From an uncultured Holophagae bacterium (lineage in GTDB: Bacteria > Acidobacteriota > Thermoanaerobaculia > Thermoanaerobaculales > Sulfomarinibacteraceae), in NCBI GenBank assembly GCA_963714385.1, contig CAVQOJ010000002.1, positions 326,528 to 390,527 on the forward strand: a DNA stretch of 64,000 nucleotides. The letters are read 5' to 3'. A program made the translations under genes and the position numbers. Positions 1,749 through 63,397 of this stretch are shown here, piece after piece. The notes under the pieces were generated by a model. It worked only from the letters and a program-made list of their open reading frames with translations. It searched no databases and was not told where the DNA came from. Position 1 is the stretch's first letter. Each line of letters begins with the position of its first letter.

Positions 1749-3811
1749 CCGATCTCCCGGATCGGTCCACGCGCCGCTACCGGATCGACTACCAGGGCGA
1801 GCTCAACCCGGAGCAGCTGCGGGTGGTCATGCATCCCGGCGGCCCGATGTTGGCCTTGGCCGGAGCTGGAACCGGCAAAACCCGGACCCTGGTCTATCGA
1901 GCGTGTCGTCTCATCGAGGACGGCGTGCCGCCGGCGCGAATCCTGTTGCTGACCTTCACCAACAAGGCGGCGCGGGAGATGCTGGACCGGGTGGAACATC
2001 TGGTGGAAGGCACCGCCGGCCGGGTCACCGGGGGAACGTTTCACTCCGCCGGCCATCGAATTCTCCGCCGGCACGCCTCCCTCCTCGGATACTCGGAGAG
2101 ATTCTCGATCCTCGACCGGGAGGACGCCACCGATCTCATGGGCCAGGCCCTGTCCGACCTGAGCCCCGACCTCCCCAAGCGTCGAACCCCCAGGCCCCGG
2201 CTGCTGCTGGACATCTACAGCTTCGTGATCAACACCGGCCGTGAGCTCGAGCAGGTGTTGTTGGAGCGGGCCCCCCAGTACGTCGATCAGGGTGAGGCCA
2301 TGGCCGCCGTCTTCCGGCGCTACCTGGAACGCAAACGCCAGGCCGACGCGATGGACTTCGACGACCTCCTGCTCAACTGGCTGTTGCTGCTGACCCGGCA
2401 GCCGGCGGTGCGCAGGGAGCTGGCGGAGCGCTTCCTCCACATTCTGGTGGACGAGTACCAGGACACCAACCGGCTGCAGGCGGACATCGTCGACGGAATG
2501 TTGGGAACAGACAAGAACGTGATGGTCGTGGGCGACGACGCCCAGTCGATCTACGGCTTCCGCGGCGCCGAGTTCGCCAACATCCTGGGGTTTCCCGAAC
2601 GCCATCCGGAGTGCGAGATCTTCAGGCTGGAGACCAACTATCGGTCGACGCCGAAGATCCTCGACCTGGCCAACGCGTCCATCGTTCACAACAAGAACCA
2701 GTTCCGCAAGGAGCTGCGGGCGGTCCGCAGCGCGGGCGAGCCTCCGACCGTGGTCTCGGTGCCCACCCCCGAACGGCAGGCAAGCTGGGTGGCCGAGCGA
2801 ATCCTCGAGCTGCGCGAGGAGGGCATCGACCTCGAGGAGATCGCGGTCCTTTATCGAAACCACTCCCACTCCCTCGACCTCCAGGTTGAGCTCACCCGGC
2901 GCAACATCCCGTTCCGGGTCCGATCGGGCCTCCGGTTCTTCGAGCAACGCCACATCAAGGACGTGCTGTGTCACCTCAGGGTGATCGACAACCCTCGCGA
3001 CGAGGTCGCCTTCGTCCGCGCCGTCAAGCTGCGCCCGGGATTCGGGCCGAGGCTGGCCGGGCGCCTGTGGGATCGCATGTCCGGCGCCGACCCTCTCGCC
3101 CGGCTCGCCGCCCTCGACCATGCGACCCTCGGACTGCGGGGGGCGGCCCGAGGACCGTTCTCCGACCTCCAGCTGTTGATGCAGGACCTCCAGGCGGAGC
3201 CGCTCGCCCGGCAGCCCGGCGAGTCGCTGCGTTTGGTGGTCGACCGCTTCTACCGGCAGTGGGCGCGCGACAACCTGGACAACGCCGGGTCGCGGCTGGA
3301 GGATCTCGAGCAGCTCGCTCTCTATGCCGACTCCTACCCCGACGTCAACACGTTCCTCGCCGAGGTGACCCTGCTCAACGACCTGTCGGGTGAGGATGCC
3401 GTCGGCGGCCCTCCGGACGAGGTCCTGACCCTCTCCACGACCCACCAGGCCAAGGGGCTCGAGTGGAGGGTGGTGTTCGTCATCTGGCTCTCCGAAGGCC
3501 GTTTCCCCACGGTCCGCGCGGAGGACGAGGAGGAGGAGCGCCGCCTGTTCTACGTGGCGGCCACCAGAGCCAGAGACCTGCTCTTCTTGGTCCACCCCTC
3601 CATCGCCCGCGACCGCTACCGGGTGGATGTGGTGATCAGCCCTTCCCGTTTCCTGCTCGAGCTGCCCGCCGACGTCTCCGACAAGCTCACGGTCGCCGAC
3701 GACCTGCGGGAAAATGCCCTGGACGCTCTCCCGGAAGAGCTGAGGTACCGCCTGCCGGCGTTCCTGGAACCGTCACCGGCCGATGGCGACGACAACGAAG
3801 GGGTGAACTGA
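1745..3811 (+). CDS. UvrD/PcrA/Rep-family ATP-dependent DNA helicase
   Basis: 688-aa ORF with Walker A AGAGTGKT, motif II VDEYQDTN, GDDAQSIYGFRGA, ETNYRST, TTHQAKGLEW. Confidence 0.9.
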   Translation: MTDLPDRSTRRYRIDYQGELNPEQLRVVMHPGGPMLALAGAGTGKTRTLVYRACRLIEDGVPPARILLLTFTNKAAREMLDRVEHLVEGTAGRVTGGTFHSAGHRILRRHASLLGYSERFSILDREDATDLMGQALSDLSPDLPKRRTPRPRLLLDIYSFVINTGRELEQVLLERAPQYVDQGEAMAAVFRRYLERKRQADAMDFDDLLLNWLLLLTRQPAVRRELAERFLHILVDEYQDTNRLQADIVDGMLGTDKNVMVVGDDAQSIYGFRGAEFANILGFPERHPECEIFRLETNYRSTPKILDLANASIVHNKNQFRKELRAVRSAGEPPTVVSVPTPERQASWVAERILELREEGIDLEEIAVLYRNHSHSLDLQVELTRRNIPFRVRSGLRFFEQRHIKDVLCHLRVIDNPRDEVAFVRAVKLRPGFGPRLAGRLWDRMSGADPLARLAALDHATLGLRGAARGPFSDLQLLMQDLQAEPLARQPGESLRLVVDRFYRQWARDNLDNAGSRLEDLEQLALYADSYPDVNTFLAEVTLLNDLSGEDAVGGPPDEVLTLSTTHQAKGLEWRVVFVIWLSEGRFPTVRAEDEEEERRLFYVAATRARDLLFLVHPSIARDRYRVDVVISPSRFLLELPADVSDKLTVADDLRENALDALPEELRYRLPAFLEPSPADGDDNEGVN

Positions 3812-4916: not shown

Positions 4917-5297
4917 ATGGCAGTCACAGCCTTGAACAACGAGAACATCCAACCCACCATCGAGAACAACGACATCGTGGTGATCGATTTCTGGGCCTCG
5001 TGGTGCGGCCCGTGCCAGGCCTTCAAGCCGGTCTTCGAAGCGGCGTCCGAAAAGCACGACGGAGTGACCTTTGGGTCGGTCAACACCGAGGAGGAGATCG
5101 AGCTCGCGTCGATGTTCCAGATTCGGTCGATCCCGACCCTGGTCGTCTTCAGGGACCAGATCCCGATCTTCGGCCAGCCCGGAATGCTGCCGGCCGAGGC
5201 CCTCGACGAGCTGATCGCCAAGGTCAAGGAGCTCGACATGGACGAGGTCCGCGCCCAGGTCGAAGAGCAGAAAGCCGCGGCGACCGCGCAGGCGTAA
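4917..5297 (+). CDS. trxA: thioredoxin
   Basis: 126 aa with WASWCGPC active-site motif and typical thioredoxin length. Confidence 0.9.
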   Translation: MAVTALNNENIQPTIENNDIVVIDFWASWCGPCQAFKPVFEAASEKHDGVTFGSVNTEEEIELASMFQIRSIPTLVVFRDQIPIFGQPGMLPAEALDELIAKVKELDMDEVRAQVEEQKAAATAQA

Positions 5298-5303
5298 CCA
5301 CAC

Positions 5304-6188
5304 GAGTTAGGAGTTAAACGTCACACGTTAAACGTTCGGTTCATCCGGAATTCTGTGAGGTGGGGGTCGATCATTTTCGGATTTCACAACGGCACCCGCC
5401 CGCCCGAAGAGGAACCGCGGTTTCATCGCGGAGACAGCCATCAGGGACAGCGTCAGAATCCAGCGGCAGGGACCCGCGGCAGCGTCAGTTGACAGCGTCA
5501 GTATCGGAGTACCGGGTGCGCTCAGATGGGATTGAGCAGGCGCCACGTCATCGCACGAACTTGGTCAAAGGTCTCCAGGGCATTCTCTGCCCCGATTCCA
5601 TTGACTGCACCAGCGGCGGCGAGGAGTCGCAGGTGGCTGTCGACCTCTTTGGCCGAGGCGTAGGCGATCCGCCAGTGGTGCTGGCGGTCTCTTCCGAATC
5701 GGCCGTGTCCTTCCGCCAGGTTTGCCGGGACCGAGCTTGCCGATCGGATCACCTGATCGGCAATCGATTTCAAAGGGGCGGGAACCCTCATCACGAGCTT
5801 GATAGCTACGCCTGCTGCTTCGAGGGCTTTCTCGAGGGCTGCGAGGTTGGTGTTCGTGACGGCTTTGGACATGGTCACCTCCGGGTCGTTCATGCCCTCC
5901 CCCACAAGCCGGTGAGGCAGCCGATGTCAAGGGTGTGTAACACCGGACCCGTGGGCCGGCTTGCCCTTGACATCGGCTGCCCACCGGCCATTCGTTCCTT
6001 TGAACGACCCGGAGGTGTCCATGTGCTACACGGCCAAGGCAACTGTTTGCTGCCGCTGAAGACTGATCGCTGTCCCTGCTCGCTGTTCCCTGTCGCCGCC
6101 CCTGAATTCTGTCGCTGCCGCCGCAATTCGGGAACGGGAACGGCAACACCCCAACCACACGTTTTCCCGGATGAGCCAAACGTAAAAC
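5304..6188 (-). mobile_element. foldback element copy 1 carrying a four-helix-bundle gene (heptad arms + 18-bp inverted termini + long imperfect internal inverted repeats)
   Basis: Termini aacgttcggttcatccgg (5331-5348) and ccggatgagccaaacgt (6167-6183) are reverse complements. Outer heptads gagttag gagttaa acgtcac acgttaa (5304-5338). Homologous end-to-end to 22980..24019 in inverse orientation. No transposase. Confidence 0.6.
5522..5872 (-). CDS. four-helix-bundle protein (23S rRNA intervening-sequence protein / Avd-like family)
   Basis: MSKAVTNTNL...VMRVPAPLKSIADQVIRSASSVPANLAEGHGRF...AKEVDSHLRL, typical of the family. Start chosen at the ATG preceded by GGAGGTGACC. ~93% identical to the 23325..23675 product. 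Confidence 0.8.
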   Translation of the reverse strand: MSKAVTNTNLAALEKALEAAGVAIKLVMRVPAPLKSIADQVIRSASSVPANLAEGHGRFGRDRQHHWRIAYASAKEVDSHLRLLAAAGAVNGIGAENALETFDQVRAMTWRLLNPI

Positions 6189-22852: not shown

Positions 22853-22868
22853 GGCACCTCGTGCCCGA

Positions 22869-22942
22869 GTTGAAAGTTGAAAGTTGAAAGTTCCCGCCCA
22901 CCCTCCCTCTCGGGCGGGCGGAGAGATCTTCAATCTTCAATC
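22869..22942. repeat. heptad arrays (GTTGAAA x3 ... ATCTTCA x2) around a C-box/G-box palindrome
   Basis: gttgaaa x3 (22869-22892), cccgcccaccctccctctcgggcgggcgg, then atcttca atcttca atc (22926-22942). Confidence 0.9.
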
Positions 22943-22979: not shown

Positions 22980-24019
22980 CGGTTAAGAGTTACACGTTAA
23001 ACGTTAAACGTTTGGTTCATCCGGGAAAGCGTGAGGTCGGTTCTTCCGATCCCGTTCCCGACGAAAAATCCAGCGTCAGGGTCAGGGTCAGCGTTCAGTG
23101 GCAGTAGCCGGGGCAGGTTACAGCGGACAGCGACTGGGGCCGGATGCAGCGATCAGGTGTGCGGCGGCTGCATGGTCCCCTCCGGGTCGTTCACGGGGTG
23201 AATGGGCATAGCTGGCGAGGGGGCCGGAGTCAAGGGCGCAATGCGGCCGGCCTAGGGGTGGTAAACCCTTGACACCGACCCCCTCACCAGCATTCGGGTG
23301 AGCATGAACGACCCGGAGGTGACCATGTCCAAAGCCGTCGGAAACACCAATCTCGTCGCCTACACCAAGGCGCTCGAAGCAGCAGGCATAGCCATCAAGC
23401 TCGTCATGAGAGTTCCCGCCCCTCTAAAATCGGTTGCCGATCAGGTGATCCGGTCGGCGAGTTCGGTCCCCGCCAACCTGGCGGGAGGACACGGCCGATT
23501 CGGAAGAGACCGCCAGCACCACTGGCGGATCGCCTATGCCTCGGCCAAAGAGGTCGACAGCCACCTGCGACTCCTCGCCGCCGCTGGTGCAGTCAATGGA
23601 ATCGGGGCAGAGAACGCCCTGGAGACCTTTGACCACGTTCGTGCGATGACGTGGCGCCTGCTCAATCCCATCTGAGCGCGCCCGGTTCTCCGATACTGAC
23701 GCTGTCAACTGACGCTGCCGCGGGTCCCTGCCGCTCCTAAGTAACTGGCCGTCGGTCCTGAGTTACTTCCCCGTTGTCTCCCACGGCAACGCGGGTGCGA
23801 TGCTGGTTTCTGACGCTGTCCCTGATTGCTGTTTCCGCGGATGAAGCCGCGGTTCCTCTTCGGGCGGGCGGTGCCGTTCCAAAATCCGACGTTGACCGAC
23901 CTCCACCTCACGGAATTCCGGATGAGCCAAACGTTAAACGTATGAGGAACCTCGGCGGCACAAACCACCGAGAACGGTCGCGTCGACGTTTAACGTGTAA
24001 CGAGTAACGTGTAACGCTG
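22980..24019 (+). mobile_element. foldback element copy 2 carrying a four-helix-bundle gene
   Basis: Termini aacgtttggttcatccgg (23008-23025) / ccggatgagccaaacgt (23918-23934). Heptad arms acggtta agagtta cacgtta aacgtta (22980-23014) and gacgttt aacgtgt aacgagt aacgtgt (23985-24019). ~70-bp insertion (about 23735-23807) relative to copy 1. Lies 150 bp upstream of tRNA-Gly. Confidence 0.6.
23325..23675 (+). CDS. four-helix-bundle protein (23S rRNA intervening-sequence protein / Avd-like family)
   Basis: 116 aa from the ATG preceded by GGAGGTGACC. Near-identical paralogue of 5522..5872. Confidence 0.8.
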   Translation: MSKAVGNTNLVAYTKALEAAGIAIKLVMRVPAPLKSVADQVIRSASSVPANLAGGHGRFGRDRQHHWRIAYASAKEVDSHLRLLAAAGAVNGIGAENALETFDHVRAMTWRLLNPI

Positions 24020-24122
24020 AATACCGGAGGAACCACTTCTTCCCACCTAGCCGGGGAGGCGAGTTCACGCCGCCTCGAGGCGACCTCCCTGGCCACGGCT
24101 GTGGGCTGCTGCAGGCGGTAAG

Positions 24123-24166: not shown

Positions 24167-24242
<76 letters not shown>

Positions 24243-27774: not shown

Positions 27775-27869
27775 GATTGCAAATTTCAAATTGCAAATTG
27801 CAAATTGCGGGTTGTCGGCGACCAGCATGGTCTTGGTTGAAGATTGAAGATTGGGAGATTGAAGATTCC
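27775..27869. repeat. two heptad arrays (AATTGCA x5; TTGAAGA x4)
   Basis: gattgca aatttca aattgca aattgca aattgcg (27775-27809). ttgaaga ttgaaga ttgggaga ttgaaga (27837-27869), followed by ccagcccaccc. Confidence 0.9.
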
Positions 27870-29277: not shown

Positions 29278-29329
29278 CGTATACCCAACGGGATCGAATC
29301 AGCAGTTATTGCCGGGATCCAGTACCGGG

Positions 29330-29522
29330 ATTGAAGATTGAAGATTGAAGATTGGAGATTCCGCTCGTCCAACCCATCGAAATGCGAAATGCGAATTGAG
29401 CGCCTGCCGAGTTCGCCGAGGGGAATCAATGTGTCTCTCGTATCAAGATGCCAGTTCTACGCAACCGCGACGATCTCGGACGCCGACAATTCGTAATTCG
29501 CAATTCGCAATTCGTAATTTGT
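29330..29522. repeat. heptad array (ATTGAAG x4) plus AATTCGY hairpin element
   Basis: attgaag x3 attggag (29330-29362). Then cgaaatg cgaaatg cgaattg | agcGCCTGCCGAG...gatCTCGGACGCCGAC | aattcgt aattcgc aattcgc aattcgt aatttgt (29378-29522). Confidence 0.9.
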
Positions 29523-34163: not shown

Positions 34164-34198
34164 GTTTCGACTTTTGACTTTCGACTTTTGACTTTTGA
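34164..34198. repeat. heptad array (TTTTGAC/TTTCGAC x5)
   Basis: tttcgac ttttgac tttcgac ttttgac ttttgac, 22 nt downstream of the ABC-2 permease stop. Confidence 0.9.
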
Positions 34199-34219
34199 CT
34201 GGAATTGGATGGGCGCCGC

Positions 34220-37629: not shown

Positions 37630-37682
37630 GTCTAAAGTCTAAGGTCAAAAGTCAAAAGTCAAAAGTCAAAAGTCGAAAGTCA
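37630..37682. repeat. heptad array (GTCAAAA)n, 7-8 units
   Basis: gtctaaa gtctaag gtcaaaa x4 gtcgaaa gtcagg. The last unit contains the stop codon (tca 37680-37682) of the upstream GT2 gene. Confidence 0.9.
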
Positions 37683-38756: not shown

Positions 38757-38885
38757 CCACCCACCCATTACGAATTACGAATTTCGAATTGCGAATTGTC
38801 GACGTCCGAGGGCGGGTGTGCCGGGGTCCATCCACGACCTCGGCAGGCCGGAATTCGTAATTCGGAATTCGTAATTCGCAATTTT
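38757..38885. repeat. AATTCGY hairpin element with core in inverted orientation
   Basis: ccacccaccc | attacga attacga atttcga attgcga attg | tcGACGTCCGAGggcgggtgtgccggggtccatccacgacCTCGGCAGGCcg | gaattcg taattcg gaattcg taattcg caatttt. Confidence 0.9.
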
Positions 38886-40447: not shown

Positions 40448-40595
40448 GAATTCCGAATTCCGAATTCCGAATTCCGAGTTCCGAATTTCCCCCTCCCCTT
40501 CTCCCCTTCTCTCCTTCTCCTTGACGAACACACGGCCTCCCATTTTTCAATTTGTAATTTTCAATTTGTAATTTTCAATTGGGTGGGCGGGTGGG
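40448..40595. repeat. heptad array (GAATTCC x6), polypyrimidine tract, heptad array (AATTTGT/AATTTTC x5) and G-quadruplex-type box
   Basis: gaattcc x4 gagttcc gaatttcc (40448-40490). ccctccccttctccccttctctccttctcc. atttttc aatttgt aattttc aatttgt aattttc aatt (40542-40580). gggtgggcgggtggg (40581-40595). Confidence 0.9.
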
Positions 40596-47284: not shown

Positions 47285-47381
47285 CCCCCGCCCACCCTGT
47301 TGAAAGTTGAAAGTTGAAAGTTGAAAGTTCCCGCCCACCGAATTGAAAATTACAGATTGCAAATTGAAAATTGAAAATTGG
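47285..47381. repeat. C-box, GTTGAAA x4, C-box, GAAAATT-type x6
   Basis: cccccgcccaccct | gttgaaa x4 gtt | cccgcccacc | gaattga aaattac agattgc aaattga aaattga aaattgg. Confidence 0.9.
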
Positions 47382-51193: not shown

Positions 51194-51256
51194 GATCCAA
51201 GATCGAAGATCAAAGATCAAAGGACGGTTTCTGAAATTTTGAATTCCGAATTCCGC
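51194..51256. repeat. two heptad arrays (GATCAAA x4; GAATTCC-type x3)
   Basis: gatccaa gatcgaa gatcaaa gatcaaa (51194-51221). gaaattt tgaattc cgaattc cgc (51233-51256). Confidence 0.9.
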
Positions 51257-51433: not shown

Positions 51434-52594
51434 ATGCCGACGACTCGCCGTGATTTCATCCAGCTGTCGGCCCTCGCCGGCGCCGCCGGCATGGGCCTTG
51501 CCGCCGATGCGGCCTCGACATCGTCCCCGATCGGTCGCGCCACCAAGCCGCTCTCGATCCTGGTGCTCGGTGGCACCGGTCTGATCGGCCCCCCCATGGT
51601 GGCCCACGCCATCGAACGCGGCCACGAGGTGACGCTGTTCAACAGAGGGAAAACGAATACCCAGCTCTTTCCCGATCTGGAGAAAATCCAAGGGGACCGA
51701 AACGACGACCTGTCGGCGCTTGCGGCGGCGATTGAGGCGGGCCGGAAGTGGGACGTGGTGATCGACAACACCGCCATGATCCCGCGCTGGGTTCAGGAAA
51801 GTGCCGGCCTGCTCAAAAACAGCGCCGGTCTCTATCTCTACACGTCGTCGATTTCGGCGTACGCCGACGCCTCGAAACCGGGACAAGACGAAACGGCCCC
51901 GGTGGGCCAGATTTCCGACGACGAGACGGCAGCCGTGAAGACCAACCGCGACATCACCGGCGAGAACTACGGCCCGCTCAAGGCCCGCTGCGAAAAAGCC
52001 GCCGAGGATGCGTTTCCCGGGCACTGCATCGTGGTCCGGCCCGGGCTCATCGTCGGACCGGGCGACTACTCGGACCGCTTCACCTACTGGCCCGTCCGGA
52101 TTCACCGAGGCGGCGAGGTCATGGCCCCCGGCAACCCGACCGATCCGGTGCAGTTCATTGACTGCCGCGACCTGGGCGAGTGGTACATCCGGTTGGTGGA
52201 GGACAACGCGGTTGGCGTCTACAACGGCACCGGACCGGCGTCGGCATTGTCGATCGCCGAGATGCTCTACGGCATCCGGGCCACCACCTCTGCAGCCGTG
52301 TCCTTCACCTGGGTGCCCACCGACTTCCTCAAGGAGCACGATGTGGCGGAGTGGTCAGAGATGACCGTGTGGCTGCCGCCGGAAGGCGAGGACGCCGGCA
52401 TTTCCAGCGTTAGCATCGCCCGGGCGATCGCCGCCGGCCTGACCTTCCGCCCTCTCGCCACCACCGCCTTCGACACCGTCGAGTATTGGAACTCGTTGCC
52501 GGAGGATCGCAGGGCCGCGCCGCGGGCCGGGCTCGACCCCGACAAGGAAAAGGCTGTGCTCGCAGCTTGGCACGCGGCACAACGCAGTTCTTAA
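51434..52594 (+). CDS. Tat-signal NAD(P)-dependent epimerase/dehydratase-family (atypical SDR) protein
   Basis: Twin-arginine signal MPTTRRDFIQLSALAGAAGMGLAA. VLGGTGLIGPPMV Rossmann motif. Confidence 0.75.
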   Translation: MPTTRRDFIQLSALAGAAGMGLAADAASTSSPIGRATKPLSILVLGGTGLIGPPMVAHAIERGHEVTLFNRGKTNTQLFPDLEKIQGDRNDDLSALAAAIEAGRKWDVVIDNTAMIPRWVQESAGLLKNSAGLYLYTSSISAYADASKPGQDETAPVGQISDDETAAVKTNRDITGENYGPLKARCEKAAEDAFPGHCIVVRPGLIVGPGDYSDRFTYWPVRIHRGGEVMAPGNPTDPVQFIDCRDLGEWYIRLVEDNAVGVYNGTGPASALSIAEMLYGIRATTSAAVSFTWVPTDFLKEHDVAEWSEMTVWLPPEGEDAGISSVSIARAIAAGLTFRPLATTAFDTVEYWNSLPEDRRAAPRAGLDPDKEKAVLAAWHAAQRSS

Positions 52595-52705
52595 TTCTGA
52601 GTTCTGAGTTCTGAGTTCTGAGTTGCACACGGTCTCAAGTTCTCGAATCGCCGAGGGCCTTCCGGGGATGGAACTCAAAACTAAGAAATAAGAACTAGGA
52701 ACTCG
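52587..52705. repeat. imperfect hairpin element with GTTCTGA arms
   Basis: gttctta attctga gttctga x3 gttgc (52587-52626; contains the taa stop of the upstream gene at 52592-52594). Core with ccgagggccttccgggg. Imperfect complementary arm gaactca aaactaa gaaataa gaactag gaactcg (52671-52705). Confidence 0.85.
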
Positions 52706-63293: not shown

Positions 63294-63397
63294 AATTACG
63301 AATTACGAATTGTTGTCTACCGAGGTCGCAGGGGGAAATTGAATACGACCTCGGACGACAAAAATTCGCAATACGCAATTCGCAATTCGTAATTCGC
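63294..63397. repeat. AATTCGY hairpin element with extended palindromic core
   Basis: aattacg aattacg aattg | ttgtctaCCGAGGTCGcagggggaaattgaataCGACCTCGGacgacaaa | aattcgc aatacgc aattcgc aattcgt aattcgc. Followed by ggccgggagggtgtgcggg. Confidence 0.9.

Follow-up and report, generated by a model that had tools for sequence, protein, structure and literature searches.

Proteins of the S23p/IVP family (PF05635) are very widespread and their structures have been solved, and to our knowledge they have no known function outside Avd, the accessory protein of diversity-generating retroelements (DGRs). The founding members of the family are located in the intervening sequences (IVSs) of rRNA genes, and the family is ring-forming, typically as a homopentameric toroid. 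Duplications of 8 bp at the target are generally described for insertion sequences (ISs) of the ISL3 family. An ISL3-family transposon has been described with inverted repeats that start with GG and an AT-rich 8-bp direct repeat (PMC9782665). The IVS of Coxiella carries CAG-containing 7-nt repeats, three to four units of GACAGAT, just upstream of its S23p open reading frame (ORF), and IVSs have been hypothesised to be remnants of transposition or mobile elements whose ORF is perhaps needed for mobility, a question debated since 1990 (PMC4990558). The term mobile insertion cassette (MIC) is used here as defined in PMC4133298. In this work we analyse a 64-kb stretch of DNA of an uncultured Holophagae bacterium (the window), which contains two copies of an element with a gene of the S23p/IVP family, one at 22980-24019 on the plus strand (copy 2) and one at 5304-6188 on the minus strand (copy 1). 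Both copies are very probably non-autonomous MICs derived from ISL3 elements, which would have kept the terminal inverted repeats (TIRs) of the IS, lost its transposase gene and been moved in trans.

The two copies had been considered homologous from end to end in a previous inspection of the bare letters (the sequence-only reading), and alignment bears this out, with more than 90% identity in the ORF and in the 3' part and a lower value in the 5' part. Their boundaries were established by the alignment of 79 related loci (numbered with an L, as are all the fetched comparison loci and contigs) and by the target-site duplications (TSDs). Specifically, column conservation, computed on 78 of the 79 fetched loci together with both copies of the window, climbs at about 23005 and drops at about 23940. 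On the basis of these limits and of the duplications the boundaries move inward, to 23014-23928 (+) for copy 2, which measures 915 bp from TIR to TIR in the conservation profile and in TIR and TSD mapping, and to 5338-6177 (-) for copy 1, which measures 840 bp by inverted repeats and the same mapping, and the element proper is shorter than previously proposed. TIRs of about 25 bp close both ends of each copy (GGYTCATCCGGRAWWNCGTGRGRT). In copy 2, inverted-repeat analysis and TIR search place the left one at 23014-23038 (GGTTCATCCGGGAAAGCGTGAGGTC) and the right one at 23904-23928 (CACCTCACGGAATTCCGGATGAGCC), both on the plus strand, while the direct-repeat signal of the family identifies an 8-bp TSD at 23006-23013 (AAACGTTT) and its partner at 23929-23936 (AAACGTTA), with seven of eight positions matching. 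The TSDs mapped for copy 1, in minus-strand reading, are TTACGTTT at 6178-6185 and GAACGTTT at 5330-5337. Taken over a longer distance, the inverted termini extend to 37 nt at 84% in copy 2 (23001-23037/23905-23941) and to 41 nt at 73% in copy 1. Inverted termini of 18 bp had been recognised from the letters, and inverted termini are indeed present, but their 'aacgtt' portion is the duplicated palindromic target and not a part of the element. Within the window the TIR core, GGYTCATCCGG, is confined to the four ends of the two copies, and none of 100 shuffles reaches the observed count.

The same organisation is found in the larger family A, represented by 34 copies with scored ends and flanks, whose left ends read GG[T/C]TCATCCGGGAAAGCGTGAGGT... 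and whose right ends read ...ACCTCACGGAATTCCGGATGAGCC. The two flanks agree on average at 5.94 of 8 positions, whereas 2000 permutations of the partners give 4.40 +/- 0.18, and the excess of direct repeats is limited to exactly 8 positions outside the ends. Perfect 8-bp duplications are found in 8 of the 34 copies, and 19 show at least seven matching positions. The consensus of the duplicated target, nAA[C/A][G/T]TTn, is AT-rich and palindromic.

Copy number and distribution are those of a mobile family. A protein search returned 4013 relatives, many of them 80-98% identical and several located together on long contigs. In species-representative genomes 436 related loci were counted, which excludes a segmental duplication limited to two copies; the Holophagae metagenome-assembled genome (MAG) CAWDGW01 accounts for more than 45 of them and a Candidatus Sulfomarinibacteraceae MAG for more than 30, and the 979,502-bp contig of the window encodes at least seven further IVP proteins. 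Moreover, L009 and L012, which are 97.2% identical over 867 nt, occupy different loci and are flanked by different perfect TSDs (TCAACTTT and TAACGTTT). A comparison with relatives, which the sequence-only reading had indicated as informative, reveals a presence/absence difference at the site of copy 2, between the genes for an OPT transporter and tRNA-Gly. In distant relatives whose OPT is 83% identical (L081-84) the spacer is about 170 bp long, with the same tRNA and promoter, and contains neither the element nor heptad hairpins. A closer MAG (L039, OPT 88% identical in nucleotides) carries the element with the same left junction; this copy is truncated at its 3' end and devoid of an insertion of about 66 nt that distinguishes copy 2. 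This insertion, estimated from the letters at about 70 bp, lies at about 23736-23801 and is also missing in copy 1. It carries a small inverted repeat (AAGTAACT...AGTTACTT) with GCT on each side, and it is unique in the window. Considering that the median identity among full-length paralogs is 87%, the family is old, yet still active on an evolutionary scale.

The connection with ISL3 was provided by the termini. A scan of metagenomes with a degenerate 20-nt end pattern, which also returned chance matches inside genes, yielded at least ten contigs with elements of about 1.3 kb bearing the family A terminus. In L102 and L179 matching termini are found at both ends, in inverted orientation, around an ORF of 403 aa, and ORFs of this type contain the DDE_Tnp_ISL3 domain (E 5e-69 and 1.5e-73) together with HTH_Tnp_ISL3. 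The similarity of the ends runs about 5 bases (RGRTG) past the imposed 20-nt pattern. A 58%-identical ISL3 element of 1365 bp, present in eight contigs (L209-L216), has the same ends, GGCTCATCCGG...CCGGATGAACC, and an 8-bp duplication, CTAAGTTC, that can be reconstructed across contigs; the copies of the ISL3 IS are likewise located in arrays of 7-nt repeats (heptads). In other words, the element has TIRs in common with a transposase-encoding IS, another gene inside, and TSDs of the length of the parent family that differ from locus to locus. It had been proposed that mobility, if any, must be provided in trans or by another mechanism, as the window contains no transposase or reverse transcriptase, and provision in trans agrees with the IVP gene being the only conserved ORF and with the presence in metagenome contigs of an ISL3 transposase with the same terminus. 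An ISL3 transposase that the cell makes elsewhere would bind the ends of the element, cut or copy it out and then insert it at a new site.

Some observations weigh against this derivation. The similarity of the first 20 nt of the TIRs was dictated by the search pattern, and what counts as independent evidence is that the match is terminal, that it is inverted at the two ends and that it extends by about 5 nt. No ISL3 transposase was detected by tblastn in the window or in about 0.6 Mb of related MAG sequence, and the 120 best homologs of the transposase lie without exception on metagenome contigs shorter than 19 kb, with none on MAG contigs, so that a partner in the same genome is something we infer rather than observe. 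The flanks of some copies, for example L033, L067 and L021, do not match. Finally, in a second group of elements with the same gene (family B) the TIRs are unrelated and the TSD measures 9 bp. The neighbourhoods of P0282 were uninformative on a same-genome ISL3 partner, and a survey of the flanks of the 79 loci, aimed at a linked transposase, found no recurrent large ORF; this survey exposed L039 as the orthologous OPT locus. Searches for the cargo protein in plasmids (tblastn) and for the TIR pattern in viral contigs matched nothing. A second TIR of L007 that resembled an IS end proved to be merely another IVP element.

Family B is found in the Sulfomarinibacteraceae MAG, where the same inner cassette lies between the TIRs CACTGCTGTCCAAAACAG and CTGTCTTGGACAAGAGTG, with duplications of 9 bp (ATGCAGGAT, ACGCTGGAT, ATCCAGCAT and others) in heptad arrays of the GGATGCT type. 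A derivative of this family of just 456 bp, devoid of the ORF (L072:3861-4316), is flanked by a perfect 9-bp duplication, which indicates that the protein is dispensable in cis for insertion. The architecture of the cassette is also retained where the protein is only 67-71% identical (L180, L127).

The gene carried by the cassette encodes a protein of 116 aa, at 23325-23675 (+) in copy 2, where gene callers also use the ATG at 23304 and obtain 123 aa, and at 5522-5872 (-) in copy 1. As anticipated in the sequence-only reading, both ORFs belong to the four-helix-bundle protein family, with 49.5 and 54.9 bits for PF05635 (23S_rRNA_IVP; curated cut-off 33.8) and 47.8 and 55.0 bits for TIGR02436 (four helix bundle protein; cut-off 24). 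The AlphaFold2 monomer model has four helices and a mean predicted local distance difference test (pLDDT) score of 93.7. The best Foldseek matches in the PDB are 2GSC (template modelling (TM) score 0.82, root-mean-square deviation 1.6) and 2RLD (TM 0.82), with Avd next (TM 0.76-0.79), while a sequence search of the PDB gave only a weak match to 2GSC (E 0.054). About 80% of the copies have an intact ORF, and the ratio of nonsynonymous to synonymous substitution rates (dN/dS) among paralogs is 0.13, with a dS of about 0.47 within a genome and of 0.5-0.8 in a set of over 60 paralogs. Strong purifying selection acting on dozens of old paralogs, together with the occurrence in a second framework, argues that the cargo is probably element-serving: most likely the gene is not inert and would serve the persistence or spread of the element itself. 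Among the damaged copies, 12 of the 79 have one and the same start lesion (GACCATGTCCAAAGCC to GACCAGTCCTGAGCC, at about 3000-3030; L033, L034, L035, L039, L042, L049, L052, L058, L064, L067, L077 and L023), which occurs across two protein subtypes, and a TTG-to-TAG stop is common to three other copies. Lesions common to different subtypes suggest gene conversion or recombination among copies.

These features of the gene would also fit an autonomous element, in which the four-helix-bundle protein is the mobility factor and perhaps recruits a host nuclease or recombinase, according to the idea of Ralph and McClelland, a hypothesis already present in the literature (PMC4990558). The IVP gene is the sole conserved ORF, the low dN/dS at such dS values in so many paralogs is the signature expected of a transposon protein required in cis, most copies keep the ORF intact, and the cassette persists in two TIR frameworks. 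However, the termini and the TSD length are those of ISL3 elements with a normal DDE transposase, and a protein that is about 80% identical between unrelated TIR types, with 8-bp and 9-bp TSDs, cannot be the one that recognises the ends. The derivative without ORF carries its perfect duplication nonetheless, and the 116-aa fold is similar to that of the Avd/S23p binding proteins and to no known recombinase. On this evidence autonomy is decidedly improbable. Unlikely, too, is that the protein is a passenger beneficial to the host, for example in stress, defence or anti-defence, with arrays and hairpin as mere expression signals. There is precedent for MICs and for ISL3 elements that carry passenger genes (PMC4133298), and the gene has its own Shine-Dalgarno (SD) sequence, a terminator-like hairpin and strong purifying selection. 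Nevertheless, dozens of redundant copies per genome would hardly all be held by selection for a host function; PADLOC gave no match for the protein and PHROGs a single one that is not meaningful (E 0.059); and the capture of the cassette by two transposon frameworks suggests an advantage at the level of the element. Derivation from ISL3 with mobilisation in trans, and a cargo gene working for the element, remains the preferred explanation.

Upstream of the gene the cassette contains a 157-nt hairpin, supported by fold and covariation, at 23171-23327 (+) in copy 2 (inner stem 23211-23236/23266-23291) and, with compensatory differences, at 5869-6024 (-) in copy 1 (inner stem 5916-5933/5964-5981). 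In its predicted outer stem the motifs CCTCC and CAT are paired with the SD sequence GGAGG (23314-23318) and with the start ATG (23325). Across 60 sequences 98.1% of the cells of the hairpin are paired, compared with 92.6% after shuffling and 23-49% in slid controls. Cells with double changes number 132 (40 after shuffling), and covariation is seen in eight pairs of the inner helix. By analogy with the fold-back inhibition described for IS10 and IS200, the hairpin probably prevents translation of the protein from read-through transcripts. Two points count against the overall explanation. First, the covarying pairs of the inner helix are Watson-Crick only, with one G-U in about 1000 cells, which is unusual for an RNA helix and suggests pairing at the DNA level, homogenisation of a palindrome or the need for a perfect duplex; the first two would fit as well as an RNA structure. 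Second, a consensus scan detected no sigma-70-like promoter for the cargo gene. A candidate within the hairpin (TTGACA-N17-TTGTGG) was discarded, its -10 being too weak and unreported by the scan. Rfam contains no family that matches at gathering score, and at E <= 1 only sub-threshold miRNA-precursor models fall on the hairpin. In L004, L009, L012, L021 and L049 (about 2850-3000) the canonical 5' hairpin is swapped for a different long hairpin, GATTGTGGTGCGGGCC...GGCCGCACCACAATTC, and a related one is also found in the ORF-less derivative L072:3861-4316.

Further outward, two arrays of triplets enclose the hairpin and the gene, confirming the internal inverted arrays noticed on both sides of the gene, which inverted-repeat analysis finds in both copies. 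The 5' array consists of about 13 CAG triplets, (CAG-N3-4)~13, spaced 6-7 nt apart (CAG[C/G]G N1-2), and occupies 23071-23160 (+) in copy 2 and 6043-6121 (-) in copy 1. The 3' array, an inverted copy of the former, consists of about nine CTG triplets, (CTG-N3-4)~9, also 6-7 nt apart, at 23696-23834 (+) in copy 2, where the insertion of about 66 nt breaks it, and at 5434-5503 (-) in copy 1. It is followed by a conserved GC hairpin and TTCCTCTTC, which together resemble a terminator (23835-23852 (+) in copy 2, 5415-5431 (-) in copy 1). The strand asymmetry of the 5' array holds in the whole family, with 9.6 CAG and 0.5 CTG per 100 nt, and 445 spacings are of 6 or 7 nt. The arrays are missing from the ISL3 IS and present in both frameworks, and thus belong to the cassette.

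It had been suggested that the whole unit could fold into a long stem with the gene in the loop. When the entire element is folded as RNA, the prediction does pair the ends and the arrays and leaves the gene in the loop (-422 kcal/mol against -344 +/- 8 in shuffles, z = -9.6). Yet pairing of 5' and 3' arrays is as good between non-cognate as between cognate partners (-142.0 and -142.9 kcal/mol, respectively), with no cognate-specific co-evolution, and their complementarity is thus a property of the family motif and no evidence of a selected, functional long stem. This comparison bears on a further explanation, in which the element is an RNA-level unit akin to an IVS or a retroelement, with a functional stem, excision by RNase III and an RNA intermediate, and with the Avd-like protein aiding a reverse transcriptase (RT). 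The predicted fold, the structural proximity of the protein to Avd and the CAG-containing heptamers that precede the S23p ORF of the Coxiella IVS (PMC4990558) would be in line with it. By contrast, a fixed 8-bp TSD and TIRs of IS type indicate DDE transposition, no RT lies beside either copy, long direct repeats like the template and variable repeats of DGRs are lacking, and the arrays have not co-evolved with their cognates. Such an explanation is extremely improbable, while RNA processing may be an added property of an element that moves as an ISL3-derived cassette.

The sites into which the element has inserted form a distinct class of structures. The outer heptad arms had been assigned to the element; this must be abandoned, as the 8-bp duplication falls between arm and TIR. 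Around copy 2, the left arm of the target hairpin (GTTAAAC type, 22983-23013 (+)) lies beyond the TSD, and the orthologous left junction is kept in L039; the rest of the hairpin (23937-24019 (+)) comprises the remaining left-arm heptads, a core at 23947-23985 and a right arm of the ACGTGTA type at 23986-24019. Deleting copy 2 and one TSD restores a heptad-arm hairpin composed of a GTTAAAC-type arm, a GC-rich core and a GTGTAAC-type arm. The element was therefore inserted into a pre-existing hairpin, and what had been described as the same plan in the element and in the small hairpin elements is not homology but a relation between host and parasite. The AATCTTC arrays reported to abut both copies are nearby, but they are part of neighbouring hairpins and have the opposite orientation relative to the element. 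Overall, 38-46% of element ends abut arrays of period 7 or 8, although such arrays make up only 1.6% of bases. The preferred AT-rich palindromic sites are concentrated in the heptad arms of this GC-rich genome, hence the finding of copies inside hairpins. Heptad-arm hairpins occupy intergenic regions and are preferred landing sites for IVP elements and other ISs. The idea that heptad arrays are stacked excision footprints was set aside, considering that array periods are mostly 7 nt and the duplications 8 or 9 nt.

The genes next to the copies correspond to those named in the sequence-only reading: trxA ends at 5297, beside copy 1, and tRNA-Gly is found at 24167-24241, beside copy 2. The neighbours of copy 1 are thus the genes for thioredoxin and an AMP-binding enzyme and those of copy 2 the genes for the OPT transporter and tRNA-Gly, with the gene for a GGDEF protein also among the neighbours. 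The expected absence of rRNA is confirmed too, an Rfam scan of the window at gathering score returning two tRNAs only.

Several observations concern the repeats of the region. Directly after the right heptad arm of the hairpin that hosts copy 2, at 24020-24034 (-), the sequence GGTTCCTCCGGTATT matches the TIR core with two mismatches, which may reflect chance or a solo end, now degenerate, left by an older insertion. Just 5' of copy 2, a hairpin at 22867-22942, with (AGTTGAA)3.6, the core CCCGCCC...GGGCGGG and (ATCTTCA)2.4, is missing in the related MAG, at its orthologous OPT-IVP junction (L039:2664-2680), so that close genomes differ by gain or loss of small hairpin elements. The window harbours about 45 tandem arrays with a period of 7, mostly as inverted pairs 50-100 nt apart (for example 9663-9694/9784-9823, 26138-26168/26220-26251, 27776-27867, 29329-29519, 38767-38883, 47299-47380, 52586-52703 and 63294-63397), each pair with its own AT-rich heptad, such as ATTGCGA/CAATTCG, AATTGAA/AATTTGT and AGTTCTG/GAACTAA. 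One pair, (TTTTGAC)5 at 34165-34200 and its inverted partner (GTCAAAA)7.6 at 37630-37682, is 3.4 kb apart and encloses not a short core but an ABC-transporter operon on the minus strand (an ATPase and two ABC-2-type permeases). In L147 and L180 the part of the element that separates the CTG array from the right TIR contains an array of (GAATTCC)n, and the same heptad is arrayed in the window at 40448-40487 and 51241-51255. At L080:10150-11600 an IS of IS5 type (DDE_Tnp_1 and DUF772, TIR GAGCCTCTTGCAAAA) is located within a heptad array (TTTCACG...), which qualifies these arrays as general hot spots of insertion. In L159, at about 400-440 (810-860 in reverse complement), only 16 nt separate the right end of an element from the left end of an ISL3 IS, and this spacer, GAACGTTC GAAAGTTC, equals two 8-nt target units, an arrangement that indicates that insertions occurred in tandem, in neighbouring units of a single array. 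In the relatives without the IVP element (L081-L084), (GATCCC)n follows OPT in the intergenic region and (GGAGCAG)n occurs further on; short-period arrays appear to be a wider trait of the clade.

On the whole, the locus presents an S23p gene as the constant and selected cargo of a genuine TIR/TSD transposon family with an identifiable transposase family, and gives concrete support to the old idea that genes for IVS proteins are carried on mobile DNA. In addition, part of the repeat landscape of these Acidobacteriota genomes is explained, as the heptad hairpins are landing pads for several elements. The structured leader and the periodic triplet arrays supply concrete hypotheses on binding and processing, making the old IVS question experimentally approachable. 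One might speculate that the periodic CAG triplets, like the GACAGAT repeats of Coxiella (PMC4990558), are a cis-element recognised by the ring-forming protein family. A broader view, which we put forward tentatively and consider possible rather than probable, is that the IVP cassette, and not the transposon ends, is the conserved selfish module, parasitising whichever framework is available, with ISL3-type ends and an 8-bp TSD in one clade and unrelated ends with a 9-bp TSD in another. The S23p ring would attach to the CAG triplets spaced along its own RNA or single-stranded DNA, in the manner of TRAP on its triplet array, and this binding might promote the maintenance or spread of the element. 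If confirmed, the classical rRNA IVSs would represent insertions of such cassettes into rDNA.

Comparison with the known systems places the element closest to MICs, such as the IS231-derived MIC231 of Bacillus cereus. As in these, the TIRs are those of an IS family, a non-transposase gene takes the place of the transposase, the TSD has the length of the parent family and mobilisation in trans is presumed. The present elements differ in their derivation from ISL3 and their tens of copies per genome, in a cargo that is constantly one PF05635 gene, subject to strong purifying selection and equipped with a conserved hairpin and triplet arrays of its own, and in the occurrence of the same cargo cassette in a second, unrelated TIR framework. 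With the ISL3 ISs they share the GGYTCATCCGG... termini, the 8-bp AT-rich TSD and the heptad-array targets, but there is no similarity beyond about 25 nt at each end, and the lack of a gene for a DDE_Tnp_ISL3 transposase rules out an autonomous ISL3 IS. MITEs (miniature inverted-repeat transposable elements) likewise combine TIR and TSD with no transposase, high copy number and intergenic location, and the 456-bp derivative L072 of family B recalls them. Nonetheless, the elements measure 0.75-0.95 kb and encode a protein, with a coding capacity that is selected and not decayed; a strict MITE, small and non-coding, is excluded by the length of the copies (840 and 915 bp) and by their intact ORF under selection.

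The 23S rRNA IVSs with S23p ORFs of Leptospira, Coxiella and Xanthomonas have in common with the element the protein family and a gene placed within sequences that can pair into a long stem; in the Coxiella IVS, CAG-containing repeats precede the ORF as they do in the cassette. Unlike them, the element lies outside any rRNA gene, has IS termini and TSDs and is multi-copy, and its ORF is intact with a strong SD sequence, whereas the ORF of the Coxiella IVS is decaying. An rRNA IVS is thus ruled out by the Rfam scan and by the flanks, trxA/AMP-binding on one side and OPT/tRNA-Gly on the other. Avd shares the four-helix-bundle fold (the TM scores given above refer to 4DWL and 8UB7) and the Pfam family, but identity is about 10%, 2GSC and 2RLD are closer, and neither an adjacent RT nor template and variable repeats accompany the gene. 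A DGR is ruled out at both loci, where the neighbours encode thioredoxin, AMP-binding, GGDEF and OPT proteins, direct repeats do not exceed 18 nt and no RT adjoins either copy, the RT scan covering the neighbours only. A full-text literature search found no paper on S23p/PF05635 genes as IS-derived cargo. In conclusion, the mechanism is largely covered by known transposon biology, and the constant, selected IVP cassette with hairpin and arrays, housed in two frameworks, provides an entry point to the old question of the IVSs.

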